DNA from: Spirochaetota bacterium
Lineage (GTDB): Bacteria; Spirochaetota; UBA4802; JAGODF01
Length of the DNA stretch: 43,723 nt
NCBI GenBank assembly: GCA_017998375.1
Contig: JAGODF010000002.1
Coordinates: 1 to 43,723, forward strand
Reading direction: 5' to 3'
This document shows, in pieces, positions 12,079 to 31,633 of the stretch; position 1 is the stretch's first letter; the number at the start of each line of letters is the position of its first letter. The notes beneath the pieces were generated by a model. That model saw only the letters and a program-made list of their open reading frames with translations, had not been told where the DNA came from and ran no database searches. The position numbers and the translations under genes were made by a program.

Positions 12079-12780
12079 ATGACAGAAGTCGACATCAACG
12101 TCCGCATCAGGAAATTCCTGTCCTCCGCGCTCCGCGATATCGGCGCCGGGAACTACGACGGCGCCATAGAGCACCTCCGCGCCGCCGAGGTGCTGGACCC
12201 GGAAAACCCGGAGACACTTTTCAACCTGGGGATATCGTACTGCCGTAAGGAGATGTTCCTCGAAGCGATCGACCTGTTCTCAAAGGTCATCGCGCTGCCC
12301 CGCTCCTCGGTGGACATTCTCACCGTGCTGAAGCTCATATCATACTGCCTCGTGCGCCTCGAGTCGTACGAACAGGCCCTCGTCCACGCCGGGGAGGGAC
12401 TCTCCCTCATGCCCGACGATACCGTGCTCCTCAACCTCGCCGGCTTCGCGAACGAAAAGCTGGACAGGGTTCCCCAGGCGCTTGCGCATTACCGGAAGAT
12501 ACTGGAGATAGACCCGGACAACGCCAACGCGCGCAACTCACTGGCGTACATCATGGCCTGGACCGGCACCGACCTCTCCGCCGCGCTGGAGCACGCGAAG
12601 GCGGCGCTGAAAGCGTCGCCGGAGAACCCCGCCTACCTGGACACCCTGGGCGTCGTCTACCTGAAAAAGGGGAATCCGGACCAGGCGCGCCAGCACCTCA
12701 AAAAGGCTCTCTCCCTCATGCCGGAATCGCGTGAGATAAAAAACCACATCAACATGCTTTTGAAAATTCAGGGTAAGTGA
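12079..12780 (+). CDS. TPR-repeat protein
   Basis: Successive 34-residue TPR-like units (e.g. ETLFNLGISYCRKEMFLEAIDLFSKVIAL, ARNSLAYIMAWTG, AYLDTLGVVYLKKGNPDQARQHLKKALSLMP). Begins 7 nt after the surE stop. Confidence 0.8.
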   Translation: MTEVDINVRIRKFLSSALRDIGAGNYDGAIEHLRAAEVLDPENPETLFNLGISYCRKEMFLEAIDLFSKVIALPRSSVDILTVLKLISYCLVRLESYEQALVHAGEGLSLMPDDTVLLNLAGFANEKLDRVPQALAHYRKILEIDPDNANARNSLAYIMAWTGTDLSAALEHAKAALKASPENPAYLDTLGVVYLKKGNPDQARQHLKKALSLMPESREIKNHINMLLKIQGK

Positions 12781-13686
12781 TCAGAGCATTGCCGCGACCA
12801 GGTCCGCGCACCGGTCAATGCTTTCCTGCACCCGCCGCGCTGTTTCACCGCCGTCGACTTCTCTGATGGACGCGCGCTCCAGGGCGCTTCGCAGTTTCTC
12901 CGTCGCGGACGTGTCATCCAGGTCACCGAACACGCCCAGGTTCGTCAGATCTTTTTTATGACTGATACAATCCGCCAGCCCGGAATGGTATGCCGTGGGA
13001 TTGACCGCAACCACGCCGCAGCCGGACACCGAGGCCTCGTACAGGAACAGCCCGAAATGCGTAACGGCCACCCGGGACGAGAGGAGTATTTCCGCGTAGC
13101 CCGCGCGCGCGGGTTCCACTTCGCCCCGCCCGTCGCGAAAAAGCGGCGCGCCCCTTCCCAGGAGATACCAGCTCGCGCCGACGGGCAGGAGCGACAGGAG
13201 CTTCTCCGCGCCCGCGTCGTCCGGAACAGCGCCGGCGTACACGACAAAATCGACCGATTTTTTCACGATGCGCCCGTCCAGCGACTTGAGTGACTGGAGA
13301 AAATTACAGCCGTAGATGAAGCTCCCGGCCACGGCCTTCACGCCGGGCGGATCCGGATGCGGCAGGATGTCCAGCACATGATCGGCGAGCTCCCTTCCCG
13401 GACCGCGGTCGTCGATCACACACACCGGCGCGATGCTCCGCAGAACGGAAACCTGCTCTTCTGTGGAATCGCGCATGTCTCGCAGGATGAGGCGCGTTTC
13501 CCCGACTTCGCGCCGCTCGTGCCGGTGCGCTTCCGACGGCACTTCACCCACCCGGGGGTGTATCACCATCATGACGTCGAGGCCATGCGCGTCACGGAGC
13601 CTCGACAGGAGCGACGCCATTCTCTGGACATGCCCCTGCCCCAGGCCCGGCCCCATGCCGGTGACGATGGTGACGTCGGCGCTCAC
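12781..13686 (-). CDS. PseG/SpsG-like (GT28 C-terminal fold) UDP-sugar hydrolase/glycosyltransferase family protein
   Basis: N-terminal GMGPGLGQGHVQRMASLL (the GxGxGHxxR pattern of PseG/SpsG). GTG start at 13686 overlaps the upstream stop by 4 nt. Family assignment is by motif only. Confidence 0.5.
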   Translation of the reverse strand: MSADVTIVTGMGPGLGQGHVQRMASLLSRLRDAHGLDVMMVIHPRVGEVPSEAHRHERREVGETRLILRDMRDSTEEQVSVLRSIAPVCVIDDRGPGRELADHVLDILPHPDPPGVKAVAGSFIYGCNFLQSLKSLDGRIVKKSVDFVVYAGAVPDDAGAEKLLSLLPVGASWYLLGRGAPLFRDGRGEVEPARAGYAEILLSSRVAVTHFGLFLYEASVSGCGVVAVNPTAYHSGLADCISHKKDLTNLGVFGDLDDTSATEKLRSALERASIREVDGGETARRVQESIDRCADLVAAML

Positions 13687-14444
13687 TTCTCCCCCGGCCG
13701 CTTCGCCGAGTGGGTCATGGCGCGCTGCTCCACGTGGCGGTTGATATCGGCCAGCTCCGGGTGCGCGTCGACGTACGCGAGGACATCAGCCAGGGGGAAG
13801 GGCTTCCCCCGGTACAGCGCATCGTAGAGAATCCCCGCCAGGCGATAGTCCTCCTCCGTGTCAACCGTGAGGCGCAGTGCACGGTGCCGCTCCTTCATGC
13901 CGGAGTCGAACCGCGCGATCTTGAAACGCCCGGGATTTTCCTTGATGAAGGGGCTCACGTGCTCCCGGTGATGGGGGCGCGTCCCCTCCCGGAAGGCCGC
14001 GTCGAGTGAGAAGCGGCTGATCACCTCCACGGAAGTACCCAGGGGGAGCCCTTCGGGGGCGCAGATATCGGCCTGCAGTGCCACGGCCTTTTTCACCGCC
14101 AGGTCCGCGAAGCCGGTATCCGTGAAGGGATTATCCGCCGTTACGCGCACGATGTAATCGCCGCCGAATTCGTCGGCCGCCCGGTGAAAGCGGTCGAGCA
14201 CGTCGTCCTCGGAACCGGCGAACGACTCCGCTCCGAGTTCCCTCGCTAGTGCGGTGATGGGAAGATTATCGTCCCCCTCGGGAACGGCAACCACCACGGC
14301 ATGCACCGAGGGGACCGCCATCACCCTCTCGATAACGTGGCGCACGAGGGGAATCCCCGCCAGCGGGAGCAGCGCCTTCCCGGGAAGGCGCGTGGAGGCC
14401 ATCCGGGCCTGGATGACGGCTGTTATTCGCGGAGTCGTGGGCAC
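13683..14444 (-). CDS. SpsF/PseF-type cytidylyltransferase (CTP_transf_3 family)
   Basis: ITAVIQARMASTRLPGKALLPL nucleotide-binding signature and VRVTADNPFTD block. 253 aa. Confidence 0.75.
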   Translation of the reverse strand: MPTTPRITAVIQARMASTRLPGKALLPLAGIPLVRHVIERVMAVPSVHAVVVAVPEGDDNLPITALARELGAESFAGSEDDVLDRFHRAADEFGGDYIVRVTADNPFTDTGFADLAVKKAVALQADICAPEGLPLGTSVEVISRFSLDAAFREGTRPHHREHVSPFIKENPGRFKIARFDSGMKERHRALRLTVDTEEDYRLAGILYDALYRGKPFPLADVLAYVDAHPELADINRHVEQRAMTHSAKRPGEK

Positions 14445-14468
14445 GGCGGAACCTCGCAGCCGGATAGA

Positions 14469-15962
14469 TCAGAGATTGAAGGTATACCACTCGTCGCAGG
14501 ACGCGCAGTCGGGGCTCTGCGCGAGCTTCCCGCGGTAGTCGTTCACGAAGTTTTCCCGCGACGCTTTCCAGATTTCGGACAGAGACCCCGTCGCGGCGCT
14601 GCCCCGCCCCCGCTCGCCGTCGACGTCCTGTTTGCAGAACGCCACCGTCCCGTCGGAGAGGATGCTCAGGTCGCGCTGGAGGTGCCAGCAGGGAATCCTC
14701 TCCACCGGCGAGAGGTCGGAGTAGCGCCTGTCCTCGATCCTGCCGAGGAAAGTGTTCTGCTTCTGGAGTATCACCGGCACGCCGATTTTTTCCCAGAAGT
14801 CGTAGTAGGCGTCGAGGAACTTCTCGGTCTCGTTGATCTTCATGACCTGCACGTAGAGGGAGTCCCCGCCGCCCAGCGCCTTTTTCAGTCCCTCCACGTT
14901 CGCCAGCACCTTCGAGAAATGGTCCGCGCCGTGGAGCGCCGCGTAGGTCACCCCGTCCATCCCGTTGACATTCACTATGACGCGGACCCTGCCCCTGCCG
15001 TGCTTCGCGCAGAATTCCGCGAAATTCGCGTCGGCGAGGAGCCCGTTCGTTTCCACGACCAGGGTCCGCACACTCTCGTCGGCGAGGGTCGTCTCCATGA
15101 TCTCGTAGAAATTACCGTGCATCAGAGGCTCGCCGGAGCCGCCGAAACAGACAGAGTACGGCAGGCCGAAGGCCTTCATGTCGCCGAGGATCTTCCGGTA
15201 GACGGGAAGCTCCATGTCGCCGCGCTGTTTCTTGAGGAACTTCCTGTAGCAGAAGACGCAGTCCAGGTCGCAGCGCCCCGTGAGCTCCACCTCCACGTAC
15301 GACGGCGCCGCGTGGAGCGCCCCCGGCGATTGCGCTATCACGTCCTTTATCTCCGCGTAGCGGGGCGCCCTGCCGAGCGCATCAAAAATGCTCTCCATGA
15401 TGCGACGGTCGCGCGGATCGCCGCAGCGGAAGGATATCCTTGTGTCGCGCACGTCCGGATGCGAATAGTAGATCTCCACGTCGAAATGGTGGATGTTCGA
15501 TTTGATCACCTGGGCGAGCGGGAGCGGCTTTTTCTCGCTCTCCGGTATGCTGCCGATGAGCTCACGGGAGACTATCTCGCCGCAGTACCCGGGCGGCACG
15601 TTCTCGGAGTAGGTGTACTCCGGCAGGTACTTCAGGTGCGTGTCGAGCATTTCCGCGATTATCGCGGGATCGAGGAACGGCGAGTCGGCATGGAGCCGCA
15701 CCGCGTGGTCGAAGTCGCTGCCGGCGAAAAACGATTTCCAGAAATCGACGTCACTGCCTTCATCAAGCTCGAGGATTTTTCCCGAAGCAGGCGCCTTCGC
15801 TAGAAAGCCCTTCGGCACGACGAGGATGATTTCATTGATTGCCGGAACGGTCCTGAGACGGGAAGAAAGCTCGTCGGGGAGATACAGCCCGCGGAAGGAG
15901 AGGTCCTCTTCCTTTATGTGTTCGCTGACCTGGAGCACTGCGGCGACTTTCAAGGGGATCAC
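14469..15962 (-). CDS. radical SAM / SPASM-type enzyme with N-terminal degenerate SpsF-like domain (spiro-SPASM-like)
   Basis: Radical SAM cluster motif GRCDLDCVFCY. C-terminal CWHLQRDLSILSDGTVAFC...CASCDEW (CX12GX4C...CX2C). The N-terminal ~200 aa align with gene 13683-14444 but lack its RLPGK signature. GTG start at 15962. Confidence 0.85.
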   Translation of the reverse strand: MIPLKVAAVLQVSEHIKEEDLSFRGLYLPDELSSRLRTVPAINEIILVVPKGFLAKAPASGKILELDEGSDVDFWKSFFAGSDFDHAVRLHADSPFLDPAIIAEMLDTHLKYLPEYTYSENVPPGYCGEIVSRELIGSIPESEKKPLPLAQVIKSNIHHFDVEIYYSHPDVRDTRISFRCGDPRDRRIMESIFDALGRAPRYAEIKDVIAQSPGALHAAPSYVEVELTGRCDLDCVFCYRKFLKKQRGDMELPVYRKILGDMKAFGLPYSVCFGGSGEPLMHGNFYEIMETTLADESVRTLVVETNGLLADANFAEFCAKHGRGRVRVIVNVNGMDGVTYAALHGADHFSKVLANVEGLKKALGGGDSLYVQVMKINETEKFLDAYYDFWEKIGVPVILQKQNTFLGRIEDRRYSDLSPVERIPCWHLQRDLSILSDGTVAFCKQDVDGERGRGSAATGSLSEIWKASRENFVNDYRGKLAQSPDCASCDEWYTFNL

Positions 15963-15980: not shown

Positions 15981-16946
15981 TCACATCACGTAGTCGGCCA
16001 TGTATATTTTCACGTCGGATTCCTTGCGCTTCTGCTCGGCCCACTTCACCATCTGCTCGCCGAGCCTCTCGTTGTAGAGTATGTTGAAGATGATGTCCCT
16101 GATCGACTCGTACTGGACAGTGCGCTTGCCGTTGAACTTCACGATGTGGTAACCGGCGCTGGATTTCACCACCCCGGAGAGCTGCCCCGGCCTGTTCAGC
16201 CCGTAGATCTGCATCGCCAGGATACGGTCGATATCCGTCAGCTTCTCCCATCCCCTGGCGCCGCCGCTGTTTTTCGTGGAGGCGTCCTCGGAATACTGTC
16301 TCGCGGCATTTTCGAAAGACATGCCTCCCCGGACCTTCGCGAGGACAGCGTTCATCTCCCGGTTCACGCGTCTCTCCTCGGCGATGGAATTGTTCCTGAG
16401 CCGCATGAAGATGTGGTGCGTGTTGAACTCGAATCCGACCTTACCGCTGTTTTTCCTGTACCATTCCAGGGCCTGCTGCTCCGACGGCGGAGACACGCCC
16501 ACTGCGATGGACATCACCATCTCCTTGGTCATCGAGCTCCGGATCTGGTCGCGGTACTCGGCGTATGAGATCCGGTCCTTCTTCTCGAGCTTTTCCTTGA
16601 ATTCGGCGTCGCTGGCGATATTGAGGCGCTTCTTCATCTTGTCGACGAAATCGTCGATCTTCTTTTCCGATATGATGATCGATTCCTCCTCGGCTGTCTG
16701 GACAAAGAGTGAATCCTCTATGAACATGTCAAGGACCCTGCTTTTGTGAAACGCCACTTTCCCCGCGGGGATTTTTTTGAACCGCCGCAGCTGGTCCAGC
16801 TTGATGTTCACCTCGCTTTCAACAATGGGCCTGTCGTTCACTACGGCGATCACGCCATCCATCCGTTCCCAGGCGCTGGAATCCGGCGCCATGAGAGCCA
16901 TCATCAGCGCCGCGGCGCCGGTCATCAATCCGGTTCTTTTCATCAT
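15981..16946 (-). CDS. SurA-like periplasmic chaperone / PpiC-type peptidyl-prolyl isomerase
   Basis: Signal peptide MMKRTGLMTGAAALMMALMA. SurA_N-like start (IAVVNDRPIVESEVN). Parvulin-type block SGVVKSSAGYHIVKF. Confidence 0.8.
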   Translation of the reverse strand: MMKRTGLMTGAAALMMALMAPDSSAWERMDGVIAVVNDRPIVESEVNIKLDQLRRFKKIPAGKVAFHKSRVLDMFIEDSLFVQTAEEESIIISEKKIDDFVDKMKKRLNIASDAEFKEKLEKKDRISYAEYRDQIRSSMTKEMVMSIAVGVSPPSEQQALEWYRKNSGKVGFEFNTHHIFMRLRNNSIAEERRVNREMNAVLAKVRGGMSFENAARQYSEDASTKNSGGARGWEKLTDIDRILAMQIYGLNRPGQLSGVVKSSAGYHIVKFNGKRTVQYESIRDIIFNILYNERLGEQMVKWAEQKRKESDVKIYMADYVM

Positions 16947-27700: not shown

Positions 27701-30160
27701 CTATTCCAGCTTCTTCGCGACCTGGATCACGCGGTAGGTCTCGAACGCGTCGCTTTCCTTGACGTCGTTGAAACCGTCGAGCTGGATGCCGCATTCCTGC
27801 CCGGCATCGACCGATGACGCGTCGTCCTTGAATCGCTTCAGTGTTTTTATCACGCCGTCGTAGATGACCACCCCATCCCGCATCATCCGGAGCTTGTTCG
27901 TCTTCTCCACCTTGCCGCTTGTGACTATGCAGCCCGCAATGGAACCAACCTTCGATATCTTGAACACCTGGCGCACCTCGCCGCCGCCGGTGATCTCTTC
28001 TTTGAACTCGGGTGAGAGCATCCCCTCCATGGCCGCCTTGATGTCGTTGGTGACCTCGAAGATGATGTTGTAGAACTTGATGGAGACCTTTTCCTTCTCC
28101 GCCACGTCGAGCACGCGCGCCGTGGGCCTCACGTGGTAACCGATGATGACTGCGTTCGACGCCGATGCGAGCATCACGTCGGACTCGTTGATACCGCCCG
28201 TTCCCGAGTGGATTACCTTAACCCGGACCTCGCTCGTCGACAGCTTCTCGAGCGCCTCCTTGAGCGCCTGCATGGAACCGTCCACGTCCGCCTTGATGAT
28301 GACGCGCAGCTCCTGTACCTCGCCTTCCTTGATGAGCTCGTTGAGGGACTCCAGCGTCACCTTGCGCACCTTCTTCGCCGACTCCTGGCGCAGGAGCTCC
28401 TGCCGTTTCTGCGCTATCTGCTTGGCGTACTTCTCGGACTCGACCACCTCCACCGGGTCGCCCGCCGAGGGCACGCTCGAGATGCCGAGCACCTCCACCG
28501 GCATCGAGGGACCGGCCTCATCGACCGCATTCCCATGGTCATCGAACATCGCCCTTACCTTGCCGGAATATACCCCGATGACGAAGGAGTCGCCCACGTG
28601 CATGGTGCCGTTCTCCACCAGCACCGTGGCGACGGGTCCGCGCCCGGCATCGAGCTTCGCCTCTATCACCTTTCCTTTCGCCATGAGAGACGGATTCGCC
28701 CGCAGGTCTATCATTTCCGCCTGGAGCAGAATCTGTTCCAGAAGCTTTTCGATATTCAGGATCTTCTTCGCGCTTATCTCCGCATAGAGCGTGTGGCCGC
28801 CCCATGTTTCCTGCACAAGCCCGTAGTTGGCCAGCTCGTTGCGCACCCGCTCGGGGTTCGCGTTCGGAAGGTCGATTTTATTGAGAGCCACGACAATCGG
28901 CACCTCGGCGTCCTTGGCGTGGTTGATGGCTTCTATCGTCTGGGGTTTTACGCCGTCATCAGCGGCGACGACCAGCACCACGATGTCGGTTACCGACGCT
29001 CCCCGCGCGCGCATGGTGGTGAACGCCTCGTGGCCCGGCGTGTCGAGGAAGGTGATGGGGCGGTCGTTTATCTTCACCGTGTAGGCGCCGATGTGCTGTG
29101 TGATACCGCCGAACTCCCCGTCCACCACGTTTGTCTTCCTGATGGCGTCCAGGAGCTTCGTCTTACCGTGGTCGACGTGGCCCATCACGGTTACGATGGG
29201 AGGCCGCGGACGCCAGTCTTCCTCCTTGTCCTCCTCTTCCTTCTTGATGACCGTTTCCTGGTAGAGCGAAACCACCGACACCTCGGTCCCGTATTCCGAA
29301 GCGAGAATTTCCGCGGTCTCGGAGTCGATAACCTGGTTGATGGTTGCCATCATGCCGAGCTTCATCAGCTTCGCGATGAGCTCGCTCGCCTTTATGTTCA
29401 TCTTCTTCGCGAGATCGCCGACGCTGACGCTTTCGGTTATCTCGATGTTCTTCGGCGTGGTTATTTCGGCCGGCTTGTCTTCCCTGTATCCCGGCTTTTT
29501 TCTCCTGAGGACGATGTCCTTCCCTTCGCTGGAACGGGCCTTGTCCTTCTTGTAATCCTTCTTCTTGTCCTTATCCTTGGTCTTCTTCCTCTTGCCGGCG
29601 CCGTCTTTGCCGCCGAAAGGTTCCCCTTCTTTCTTCTTCTCCCCAGTTGCCCCGGGGGCGCCTCCCGGACCGGTCCTGGGCTTGAACAGGTTTTTCAGGT
29701 CCCTCGCCGGGGCGGGTTTGCCCCTGTCTCCGGCGGGACGCGGACGTGCCGTGGAGGCGTCCTTGAGTTCCCTTATTTCACCGCCACGCCTTCCCTCGAC
29801 GGGTTTTCGGTCCCTGGGCTTTTCACCGGCGGCGGCAGGCTTTTCCTTCGCGTCCGTGGCAGGCTTCGCCTCGCCTTCCTCGGGCTTTTCCTTTATGAGT
29901 TCCTTGGTGACATGAACCTTCCGCTTCAGCTTTATCTTCTTGCCTTTCTGATCGCGCCTCTCCGCGTTTTTCCTGAGGATCTCCTGGGCTTCCTTCGCCC
30001 GCTGGGCCTTGACCGTCTCGATCCTCTTCTCAACGAGGAAGATGTCGTTCCCGGTAATCTCGGAGTTCTCGTCGCCGCAGGAAATATCGAGCTCCTTGCA
30101 GATGATCAAAATATCATCGAACGAGACATGGTTGTTGTTTGCGATCTCAATGGCTTTCAT
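27701..30160 (-). CDS. infB: translation initiation factor IF-2
   Basis: G-domain motifs [16 protein letters not shown] and NKID. Lys/Glu-rich linker and IF2 C-terminal domains. 819 aa. Confidence 0.97.
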
Positions 30161-30229
30161 GTATGTCCTTGCGTTGCGTTCTGGTTCTATCCGTCCTGCT
30201 TTCCCGGTCTCGCCTTACCGGGACATGTC

Positions 30230-31633
30230 CTATTCCTCGCTCTTGGGTTCATCTGCGGCTGTCTCACCGCCCTGTTCACCGGAGGCGCCATCCCCTTCCG
30301 GGGCGGCGGTCTCTTCCCCGCCTTCACCGCCTTCCTCCCCTTCTTCCTCGCCTTCGAAGTCTACAACCTCGGAGACTATATCCATTATCTTCTTGGCGGA
30401 CTTCTCGCCGATACCGTCTATCTTGATGAGGTCCTCGAAGGAGCGTTCCACGAGGTCCTCCACGGACAGGATGCCGCCGGCCTCCAGAAGCTTGATTATC
30501 CTGGGCTCAAGGCCGAGTTCCTCGAGCGGCGTCTCGTCCACGTCCTTCTTCGCGAAGAGCTGTTCCACCAGGGCGCGGGATTCGCTGGAGCTCAGGAACT
30601 CGCGGTACTGCTCCTCGGTCTTGATGTCGATGTCAAACCCGCAAAGACGGGAAGCGAGTTTCGCGTTGTGCCCGCCCTTCCCCACGGCGAGATTATACTG
30701 ATCCCTGTCCACGACGGCGATAACCCCGCCGCCCGAGGTTTCTATCACTTCCCTCACCCGCGCGGGCGTCAGCGAATTTGCCGCCATGGTCACCCTGTCG
30801 GGTGAGTATTCAACCACGTCAACCTTTTCGCCCTCGAGCTCGCGCACTATCGACTGGATGCGCACGCCCTTCATGCCAACGCAGGCGCCCACGCTGTCGA
30901 TGTCGTCGCGCTCGCTTGCGACCGCGACCTTGGTGCGCACGCCGGTGAAGCGGACTATGTTCACTATGCTGACGATCCCGTCGTACACCTCCGGGATCTC
31001 CATTTCGAAGAGCTTCTTGATGAACGTCGGGTGCGACCGCGAGAGGATGATGGTGGGGCCCTTGGAATCCTTGCCCACGCTCAGGACTATCGCCTTTATC
31101 CGATCGCCTATCTTGTAGTGCTCCAGGGGCGACTGTTCCTTCGCGGGAAGAATTCCCTCGGTCTTGCCGAGATCGACGAACATCTTGTCCTTGGTTTTCC
31201 TCTGGAGATAGCCGTTGATGAGCTCGTTCTCCTTGCCCTTGAAGTCGTTGAAGATGATGTTCTTCTCCGCTTCCTTTATCTTCTGTATGATGACCTGTTT
31301 CGCCGTCTGCGCCGCGATGCGCCCGAACGAGTCAAACGGATTTTCCTCGATATCGATTTCGTCTCCGAGTTTCACATCCGGGGAGACCTTTCTCGCCCTT
31401 TCCATCGATATCTCCTCGGCGGGATTCCGGGGATTGTTCACCACCATCTTCCGTGTCACGATCTTGACGCTGTTGTCGGTCCTGTCGAAGTTGACGCGCA
31501 CGTTGTTCGTGATGCCGTACTGCTTCTTGTACGCAGACAGCATTGCGGACTCGACGATCTCCTCGATGGCTTCCCTGGGGATGCTCTTTTCGTTCGCAAT
31601 CTGGTGCAACGCTTCAAAAAAATTACTGCTCAT
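30230..31633 (-). CDS. nusA: transcription termination/antitermination factor NusA (acidic C-terminal tail)
   Basis: S1 domain (YKIGDRIKAIV), KH domains (GACVGMKGVRIQSIV, AVGKGGHNAKLASRL), HhH-type repeats and a Glu/Gly-rich tail. SD AAGGA before ATG 31633. Confidence 0.95.
   Translation of the reverse strand: MSSNFFEALHQIANEKSIPREAIEEIVESAMLSAYKKQYGITNNVRVNFDRTDNSVKIVTRKMVVNNPRNPAEEISMERARKVSPDVKLGDEIDIEENPFDSFGRIAAQTAKQVIIQKIKEAEKNIIFNDFKGKENELINGYLQRKTKDKMFVDLGKTEGILPAKEQSPLEHYKIGDRIKAIVLSVGKDSKGPTIILSRSHPTFIKKLFEMEIPEVYDGIVSIVNIVRFTGVRTKVAVASERDDIDSVGACVGMKGVRIQSIVRELEGEKVDVVEYSPDRVTMAANSLTPARVREVIETSGGGVIAVVDRDQYNLAVGKGGHNAKLASRLCGFDIDIKTEEQYREFLSSSESRALVEQLFAKKDVDETPLEELGLEPRIIKLLEAGGILSVEDLVERSFEDLIKIDGIGEKSAKKIMDIVSEVVDFEGEEEGEEGGEGGEETAAPEGDGASGEQGGETAADEPKSEE

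Follow-up and report, generated by a model that had tools for sequence, protein, structure and literature searches.

In a 43,723-nt stretch of DNA from a Spirochaetota bacterium (GTDB lineage Bacteria; Spirochaetota; UBA4802; JAGODF01), which is contig JAGODF010000002.1 of assembly GCA_017998375.1, positions 1 to 43,723 of the forward strand, and which we refer to at its full length as the window, we find an operon built around a radical S-adenosylmethionine (SAM) protein of the family named "spiro-SPASM." In this protein a full-length paralogue of the cytidylyltransferase (CT) encoded by the next gene is joined to the radical SAM part, and this fused copy is predicted to be catalytically dead. 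Across spirochaetes the fusion protein is inherited together with the intact CT, with a small protein of GT-B fold that we call g301, and with an upstream SurA-like chaperone. Our tentative proposal is that the operon produces, or else modifies, an acidic or deoxy sugar in nucleotide-activated form that is destined for a glycoconjugate of the envelope, a reading in which our confidence falls somewhat short of even. An earlier reading of the letters alone (hereafter, the original prediction) had described a three-gene nucleotide-sugar module at this place; its three minus-strand open reading frames (ORFs) were verified at 14469-15962, 13683-14444, and 12781-13686, and every motif it quoted was found in the translations. 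The features on which the argument draws are as follows.

14469..15962, minus strand: spiro-SPASM protein (TIGR04321), 497 aa from GTG at 15962, probably 494 aa from TTG at 15953.
15318..15962, minus strand: N-terminal pseudo-cytidylyltransferase domain of this protein, residues 1 to ~215, predicted from BLASTP, hhalign, and Foldseek.
14763..15299, minus strand: radical SAM core, residues ~222-400, with PF04055, CX3CX2C, and the GGSGEP SAM-binding motif.
14472..14708, minus strand: C-terminal auxiliary Fe-S domain, residues ~419-497, with PF13186 and C425, C443, C486, and C489.
13683..14444, minus strand: SpsF-type CT, 253 aa, with PF02348; paralogue of the fused domain.
12781..13686, minus strand: g301, a 301-aa GT-B fold protein, distant member of the PseG superfamily.
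15981..16946, minus strand: SurA-type periplasmic chaperone/peptidyl-prolyl isomerase, directly upstream of spiro-SPASM across an 18-nt gap.

The 497-aa protein is an ordinary member of NCBIfam family TIGR04321 and differs from it in no respect that bears on membership (376.2 bits, E 2.4e-112, cutoff 250, model positions 87-509), so that an affiliation which the original prediction had named as possible is now confirmed. Distant relatives likewise exceed the cutoff, at 313-510 bits, and homologues of the window protein carry the name "spiro-SPASM protein." The family appears to be restricted to spirochaetes: all 80 of 80 named genome loci belong to Spirochaetota metagenome-assembled genomes, and the named homologues are assigned to Spirochaetota or Spirochaetia; taxonomy is known for these 80 genome loci, the metagenome loci used below carrying none. 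An exhaustive profile search returned 442 family clusters at E <=1e-30, almost all of ~500 aa, and residue conservation was analyzed in 135 full-length sequences, namely the window protein and 134 cluster representatives (50% identity).

The relationship between the fused domain and its neighbor is visible in pairwise, profile, and structural comparisons. Residues 1-210 align with the 253-aa CT at 24% identity over 200 aa (BLASTP, E 2e-9); a family-profile alignment of the 135 N-terminal domains with 120 free CTs (the window CT and 119 homologues) gave 98.8% probability and E 5.8e-17 over 209 columns (hhalign); and the AlphaFold model of full-length spiro-SPASM (pLDDT 83, pTM 0.82) was superposed by Foldseek on the whole chain of 6OEW with a target-normalized TM score (TMt) of 0.71 and a root-mean-square deviation of 3.6 A over 241 columns. 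The CTP_transf_3 model matches the domain below threshold, at 17.7-19.8 bits against a gathering threshold (GA) of 22.6 (residues 82-143 at 17.7). Similarity on this scale is far above chance, and these comparisons make the fused domain a paralogue of the whole adjacent CT, as had been proposed for its first ~200 aa.

The fold that KdsB and CMP-Neu5Ac synthetase share is thus common to the free CT and the fused domain. The free CT has the nucleotide-binding loop and both Asp motifs, whereas the fused domain is without equivalents of K19 and the Arg-containing loop and without both Mg-binding Asp. The P-loop [AS]RxxSxRx[PK]xK, which occurs in 108/119 free CTs, occurs in 0/251 family members; it is deleted in the window's clade, leaving a 4-residue gap, and in the deepest clade it reads NAxxLSxYA, with no basic residue. 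The Mg-binding positions are unconserved, the D104 equivalent being Asp in 47% and the D195 equivalent in 22%. Two strictly conserved Asp of KdsB, D95 and D219, flank Mg-A, and K19 stabilizes the beta-phosphate (PMC3149649); CMP-Neu5Ac synthetase loses essentially all activity in its D209A and D211A variants (PMC2901514). Because the residues lost, the P-loop Arg/Lys and both Mg-binding Asp, are the catalytic ones in these two enzymes, we predict that the fused domain is catalytically dead; the loss of its active site, first noticed in the single window protein, extends through the family.

To call the domain degenerate, as the original prediction did, is right about catalysis and wrong about the domain as a whole. 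It has near-invariant residues of its own (H109 91%, E163 97%, D170 99%, R172 88%, R175 99%), and because these have no counterpart in the CT family, the domain is best described, on its residue pattern, as repurposed and not as decaying. The retention of the whole fold, the conservation of P95, D98, P123, and G125, and the weak or confident NTP_transf_3 matches of some members would also suit a nucleotidyltransferase that is still active and binds its nucleotide in a noncanonical way, but we find this barely credible for a domain that has no Arg/Lys P-loop in any of the 251 members, whose loop is deleted in one clade and stripped of basic residues in another, and whose metal-binding Asp positions, of a kind at which mutation kills related enzymes (PMC2901514), have been let go.

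C-terminal to this domain come a radical SAM core and then an auxiliary Fe-S domain. Radical_SAM PF04055 covers residues 225-374 (54.5 bits, GA 29.5), with the cluster triad CDLDCVFCY at C231, C235, and C238 and GGSGEP at residues 274-279. The C-terminal domain is scored as SPASM by Pfam (PF13186, residues 425-490, 29.6 bits, GA 21.5), and its motif, CWHLQRDLSILSDGTVAFC...CASCDEW, reads C425-X12-G438-X4-C443 ... C486-X2-C489. These four Cys are kept in 133-134/135 family clusters, and no further C-terminal Cys is conserved. The canonical SPASM motif, CX9-15GX4C...CX2CX5CX3C...C, has seven Cys and binds two clusters; in spiro-SPASM CX12GX4C and CX2C alone are present (overall spacing CX17C...CX2C). 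A truncated SPASM domain with one cluster is known as a Twitch domain (PMC9012708). BtrN was the first match when the spiro-SPASM model was searched with Foldseek (TM 0.69, target-normalized) and is the best PDB sequence match as well, at ~15% identity; later radical SAM structural neighbors were CteB, anSME, SuiB, BlsE, DesII, viperins, and MoaA, and also ChlB. Because of the four conserved Cys and of BtrN as top structural match, we predict that the auxiliary domain follows a one-cluster, Twitch-like pattern and is not a canonical 7-Cys SPASM domain. Of the "SPASM/twitch" signature first reported, the PF13186 match and the motif therefore stand and the canonical SPASM alternative does not, with four Cys conserved.

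Most SPASM-domain radical SAM enzymes act on peptides or proteins, and the Pfam SPASM match, the structural similarity to anSME, SuiB, CteB, and ChlB, and weak NCBIfam matches to peptide maturases could be taken to mean that spiro-SPASM is likewise a maturase of a peptide made by the ribosome and modified after translation (RiPP) or of a protein, for example, a SurA client or an envelope protein. We give this only a slight probability. The gene is separated from its neighbors on either side by gaps of 18 and 24 nt, too short to hold a precursor gene, and clustering of diverse loci revealed no recurring small conserved ORF nearby; its N-terminal domain has a CT fold and is not a peptide-recognition element; just four of its auxiliary Cys are conserved, and its best match is BtrN; and the genes kept beside it encode a CT and a GT-B protein.

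These partners are a further line of evidence. In the window, cimA-like, murI, surA-like, spiro-SPASM, CT, and g301 genes follow one another on one strand in this order and are tightly spaced, the junctions other than the two just mentioned overlapping by 4-11 nt (CT and g301 by a 4-nt GTGA), with no internal minus-strand terminator across the operon. Co-conservation was examined in two sets of loci. Among 80 species-representative genome loci, all Spirochaetota and at 43-65% identity, the CT lies directly downstream of spiro-SPASM in 76/80, g301 is downstream in 74/80, and a SurA homologue is directly upstream in 78/80. In a second set of 80 metagenomic loci, at 26-47% identity to a member without the Cys triad, plus the contexts of loci L081-L085, the corresponding figures, counted where the contig leaves room, were 59/63 for CT, 45/52 for g301, and 51/62 for SurA. 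The conserved order is SurA-like, spiro-SPASM, CT, GT-B (g301). The neighborhood check set out beforehand thus found the genes co-conserved across diverse loci, and the module first described holds together strongly; its limitation to three genes does not hold, since SurA upstream belongs with them. The upstream gene is a true SurA: E. coli SurA is matched at 1.2e-33, and leptospiral LIC12922/3NRK at 5.6e-27 across the entire length (PMC11358297).

The unit also persists when its surroundings change. At loci L166 and L167 every flanking gene differs and the four genes are intact, and the spiro-SPASM, CT, and g301 genes stay together in genomes of 27-68% GC as the flanks change completely. In nine loci CT and g301 are fused as one polypeptide of 523-564 aa (an 839-aa ORF in L156) with the CT P-loop intact (L092 6466-8067; also L088, L090, L091, L095, L097, L102, L156, and L163), and these fusions therefore provide a Rosetta-stone link between CT and g301. 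In a deep clade that includes the top TIGR04321 scores, spiro-SPASM is followed by a ~320-aa protein, CT, a ~575-aa methyltransferase-domain protein, and a ~500-515-aa gene (L169 7457-12354 and L172 7484-12403); at L169 the ~575-aa protein was confirmed to have an N-terminal g301-like domain, and the ~500-515-aa gene is annotated as an ATP-grasp ligase. The ~320-aa protein has NRG...WNDM motifs and is possibly GT-A-like; on the shorter contigs L170 and L171, spiro-SPASM and this gene alone are visible. None of the deep-clade loci examined has SurA upstream, its place being taken by divergently oriented xseA/xseB. The unit of L167 (1-12000) is embedded in a polysaccharide locus that also encodes a Wzt ABC transporter, GT1 and GT11 glycosyltransferases, two methyltransferases, a DegT-like aminotransferase, and an EamA transporter. 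The extra genes at L167 and at the deep-clade loci are typical of sugar tailoring.

Synteny can of course be conserved among genes that share no pathway, and the radical SAM protein might act on an unrelated substrate while traveling with surA and two glycan genes. We consider this improbable. In its favor, the housekeeping genes surA, murI, and cimA show no evident tie to the module, the surA gene of E. coli likewise lies in a mixed operon, and some family members occur alone. It leaves unexplained, however, why the fused domain should be a paralogue of the very CT encoded next door, why CT and g301 should be fused in nine loci, why the unit should survive such a range of GC content with its flanks wholly changed, and why spiro-SPASM, CT, and the g301-like domain should still be together in the deep clade that has no upstream surA.

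The free CT has what an active enzyme of its kind needs. It matches CTP_transf_3 PF02348 at 84.9 bits and carries IQARMASTRLPGKAL, with the IQARxxSxRLPGK loop and both Asp motifs; within its family, conservation is 97-100% at R14, S17, R19, K23, D104, D195, and D199; among solved structures its best relative is 6oew_A (E 1.3e-24), a cytidylyltransferase from Leptospira borgpetersenii; and JGI names its homologues SpsF or cytidylyltransferase. The description of this gene as an intact SpsF-type partner is upheld by the PF02348 score and by the retention of all catalytic residues.

The third gene product, g301, carries GMGPGLGQGHVQRM. An AlphaFold2 model from a 19-sequence alignment (pLDDT 92, pTM 0.89) has a GT-B fold, with GT1 enzymes as best matches (TM 0.5-0.62, query-normalized); PseG is not among the 50 structural matches listed. 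Its invariant motifs are G16-x-G18-H19-x-x-R22 and H210-F-G212...E217, and G16, G18, H19, R22, D70, D92, and G212 are invariant in 24 divergent syntenic relatives. Nine of these 24 match the PseG model TIGR03590 at 39-63 bits (best 62.6 bits, E 4.5e-17), over as much as model positions 2-267 of 280, and g301 of the window itself gives no match to that model even at E 10. The His of GxGH presumably corresponds to the catalytic His of Campylobacter jejuni PseG, His17.

From this evidence we infer the class of substrate, the mode of docking, and the type of reaction in the proposed pathway. The CT would activate a keto-acid sugar with CTP, and g301, as a GT-B protein, would release or transfer a sugar from a nucleoside diphosphate (NDP)-sugar. 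The dead CT-like domain would dock spiro-SPASM onto this CT/GT-B chemistry, and it might do so in either of two ways. It may pair with the free CT as a pseudo-dimer partner, which is conceivable because enzymes of this CT family dimerize and share their active sites, as in CMP-Neu5Ac synthetase, where the active site is shared between subunits (PMC2901514); or its repurposed pocket may bind the sugar or the CMP-sugar. The radical SAM center, with triad and GGE motif intact in the window, would then abstract an H atom from the substrate, and the auxiliary [4Fe-4S] cluster would take an electron. The net reaction could be a two-electron oxidation of the BtrN type or a related dehydration, epimerization, or decarboxylation.

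Several findings weigh against this pathway. The first group concerns the identity of the partner enzymes and the company they keep. The free CT falls under every NCBIfam equivalog cutoff (KdsB <=61.4 bits, where the best model's cutoff is 193 and KdsB cutoffs are 155-281; PseF 25.4 bits, cutoff 205.7). No Pfam, NCBIfam, or PDB-sequence match was obtained for g301, either with the single sequence or with a 19-member profile, and its relatives fail the PseG equivalog test, reaching at most 62.6 bits against a cutoff of 153.55. Because the relatives match PseG so far below this cutoff, we place g301, as a sequence-based assignment, in the wider PseG lineage and not as a PseG orthologue; the original description of a PseG/SpsG-like third gene survives in the GT-B fold and in the remote link through relatives, and not as an equivalog or a direct family match. 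The window has no NeuB/PseI synthase, aminotransferase, dehydratase, or acetyltransferase, the remainder being housekeeping genes only, so that annotation of all window genes repeats what had been said of the missing nonulosonic-acid genes. In all-against-all clustering of 87 diverse loci, the recurring neighbors were just SurA, CimA, MurI, and antisense artifacts, with no further pathway gene; other recurrent ORFs examined in diverse loci were TPR, aconitase, and nitroreductase genes. The conserved adjacency of SurA is hard to place in a sugar pathway of the cytoplasm, and CT is missing despite contig room at L081, L082, L117, and L137. Finally, our literature search found no publication on the spiro-SPASM family or its reaction and no reported substrate, product, or phenotype, in keeping with the original prediction, which knew of no described substrate or product.

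The second group concerns the radical chemistry itself. The CX3CX2C triad is present in 71/135 clusters and absent from 64/135, with the absences scattered over the tree, and a rough neighbor-joining tree requires at least 18 changes of state, an approximate count. Three triad-less examples are the following.

L084 4906-6384: P0320.
L166 6001-7503: P0262, a near relative.
L167 6001-7461: P0264, also a near relative.

Triad-less proteins exceed the TIGR04321 cutoff, the overall top scorer (510 bits) is one of them, and the only one that carries a name is called "spiro-SPASM protein" by NCBI. Both groups conserve the auxiliary Cys and the N-terminal residues G125, E163, D170, and R175 alike, at 97-100%, and triad-less members retain SurA, CT, and g301 next door, with the catalytic motifs of the neighboring CTs intact. 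Because triad-less members keep the module and an intact CT, radical chemistry cannot, as far as these residue patterns tell, be the common activity of the family or essential to its common function, and its assumption as a universal activity was not borne out.

These same findings suggest that spiro-SPASM might be mainly a non-radical Fe-S partner subunit, with the pseudo-CT domain and the four-Cys cluster as its working unit and the radical SAM site ancestral or optional, even in the window. The CT/GT-B enzymes would be regulated, stabilized, or completed by such a subunit, which might, for example, be a pseudo-dimer partner that senses redox state or iron; NCBIfam offers a precedent in the "pseudo-SAM/SPASM" family TIGR04347. 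We regard this alternative as unlikely, if deserving of serious weight. In the window's clade C231, C235, C238, and GGSGEP are invariant, and the SAM-site residues differ between triad-bearing and triad-less members (E278 96% vs. 67%; Q372 99% vs. 50%); their relaxation where the triad is gone indicates, at the level of sequence, that selection maintains SAM chemistry in triad-bearing members such as the window protein. A cluster with four Cys ligands, moreover, has no open iron site for Lewis-acid catalysis. A bolder version, which we think rather unlikely, would make the repurposed dead CT domain and the single four-Cys cluster the indispensable core of the family, a new kind of Fe-S pseudoenzyme subunit that pairs with the active CT, and with the PseG-like protein, and so controls or completes the synthesis of an envelope sugar peculiar to spirochaetes; radical chemistry would then be an accessory that many lineages have given up, and the link to SurA would tie the sugar to outer-membrane biogenesis throughout the phylum.

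Among characterized systems, BtrN is the nearest in fold and cluster pattern; it carries out the two-electron oxidation of an aminocyclitol with its auxiliary cluster as putative electron acceptor (PMC9012708). Spiro-SPASM is like BtrN in having the CX3CX2C triad and, as predicted, a single auxiliary cluster, the small carbohydrate-like substrate being that of BtrN (PMC9012708). It differs in that sequence identity is low (the ~15% given above), in that BtrN has neither an N-terminal CT-like domain nor a linkage to a CT or GT-B gene, and in the Pfam score of the window protein's C-terminal domain as SPASM. The four auxiliary Cys of BtrN are arranged as CXnC...CX2C, as in spiro-SPASM. BlsE, DesII, viperin, and MoaA act on nucleoside or nucleotide substrates and are precedents for radical chemistry on nucleotide-tethered sugars. 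They are structural neighbors of spiro-SPASM (TMt 0.39-0.65), but the likeness is one of fold and logic only; there is no specific sequence relationship, and none of them has a pseudo-nucleotidyltransferase domain.

The SpsF/SpsG and PseF/PseG pairs resemble the module in having an adjacent CTP_transf_3 CT and a small GT-B protein with N-terminal GxGHxxR. They differ in that their synthase, aminotransferase, acetyltransferase, and dehydratase are missing from the window and in that the PseF and PseG equivalog cutoffs are not reached by the CT and the g301 lineage. To our knowledge, the established nonulosonic-acid pathways include no radical SAM enzyme. In Bacillus subtilis, SpsF and SpsG act together in the synthesis of CMP-legionaminic acid (PMC7439481).

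Among the spirochaetes are the agents of leptospirosis, syphilis, Lyme disease, and periodontitis, and little is understood of the glycans on their envelopes. To a family that had a name, this analysis adds the identity of the N-terminal domain as a pseudo-CT, a one-cluster Cys pattern, a set of gene partners that are conserved, and a triad that has been lost in many members. The union of a radical SAM enzyme with a pseudo-CT domain sets spiro-SPASM apart from BtrN, SpsF/SpsG, PseF/PseG, KdsB, and NeuA, and it does so in a phylum-restricted gene unit that spans genomes of widely different GC content, among core genes and beside SurA, without an assigned reaction. If the proposed pathway is true, it would be a new route for the tailoring of a CMP- or NDP-linked sugar, in which an inactive copy of the activating enzyme has served to recruit a radical SAM enzyme; and the repeated loss of the triad from proteins that are otherwise kept, along with their partners, would, if true, be a natural experiment in the change from enzyme to pseudoenzyme.

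Some further observations concern the window operon and its relatives. The true start of spiro-SPASM is probably TTG at 15953, giving 494 aa. We favor it because GAGG lies 8 nt upstream of it and directly abuts the GTG at 15962, because it yields an N-terminus (MKV...) like those of homologues, which begin MK..., and because the 494-aa form is the one deposited for this contig. Promoter and terminator scans of the window gave signal no better than shuffled sequence, and an Rfam scan, in which a riboswitch or other structured RNA could have offered a clue to a ligand, gave 0 matches. At L081 (6001-9181; GCA_054033435.1, 39% GC), a triad-bearing member occurs by itself: SurA, CT, and g301 are all missing within 6 kb, and the gene has a flagellin gene upstream and one for a leucine-rich-repeat protein downstream; the module is therefore not universal. 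The contig of a Cys-less 591-aa member (L082 10240-13395) also has a 1051-aa gene matching Pfam Myosin_head, which is surprising in bacterial DNA and may reflect a chimeric assembly or a spurious match.

Downstream of the module in the window, the stop codons of a convergent TPR gene (12079-12780, plus strand) and of g301 (12781-13686, minus strand) abut with no spacer (12778-12783). A TPR gene adjoins the module in some other lineages too: at L001-L008 it is on the opposite strand, and in nine loci it follows the CT-g301 fusion on the same strand. At some distance from the module, an 890-aa ORF at 28133-30805 on the plus strand has no Pfam match and a low GC content at third codon positions (GC3 0.62), and AT skew between 28000 and 31000 is strongly negative (-0.33 to -0.35); the region lies just past the minus-strand genes rbfA, truB, and pnp, and the real gene at 28133-30805 is probably on the minus strand.

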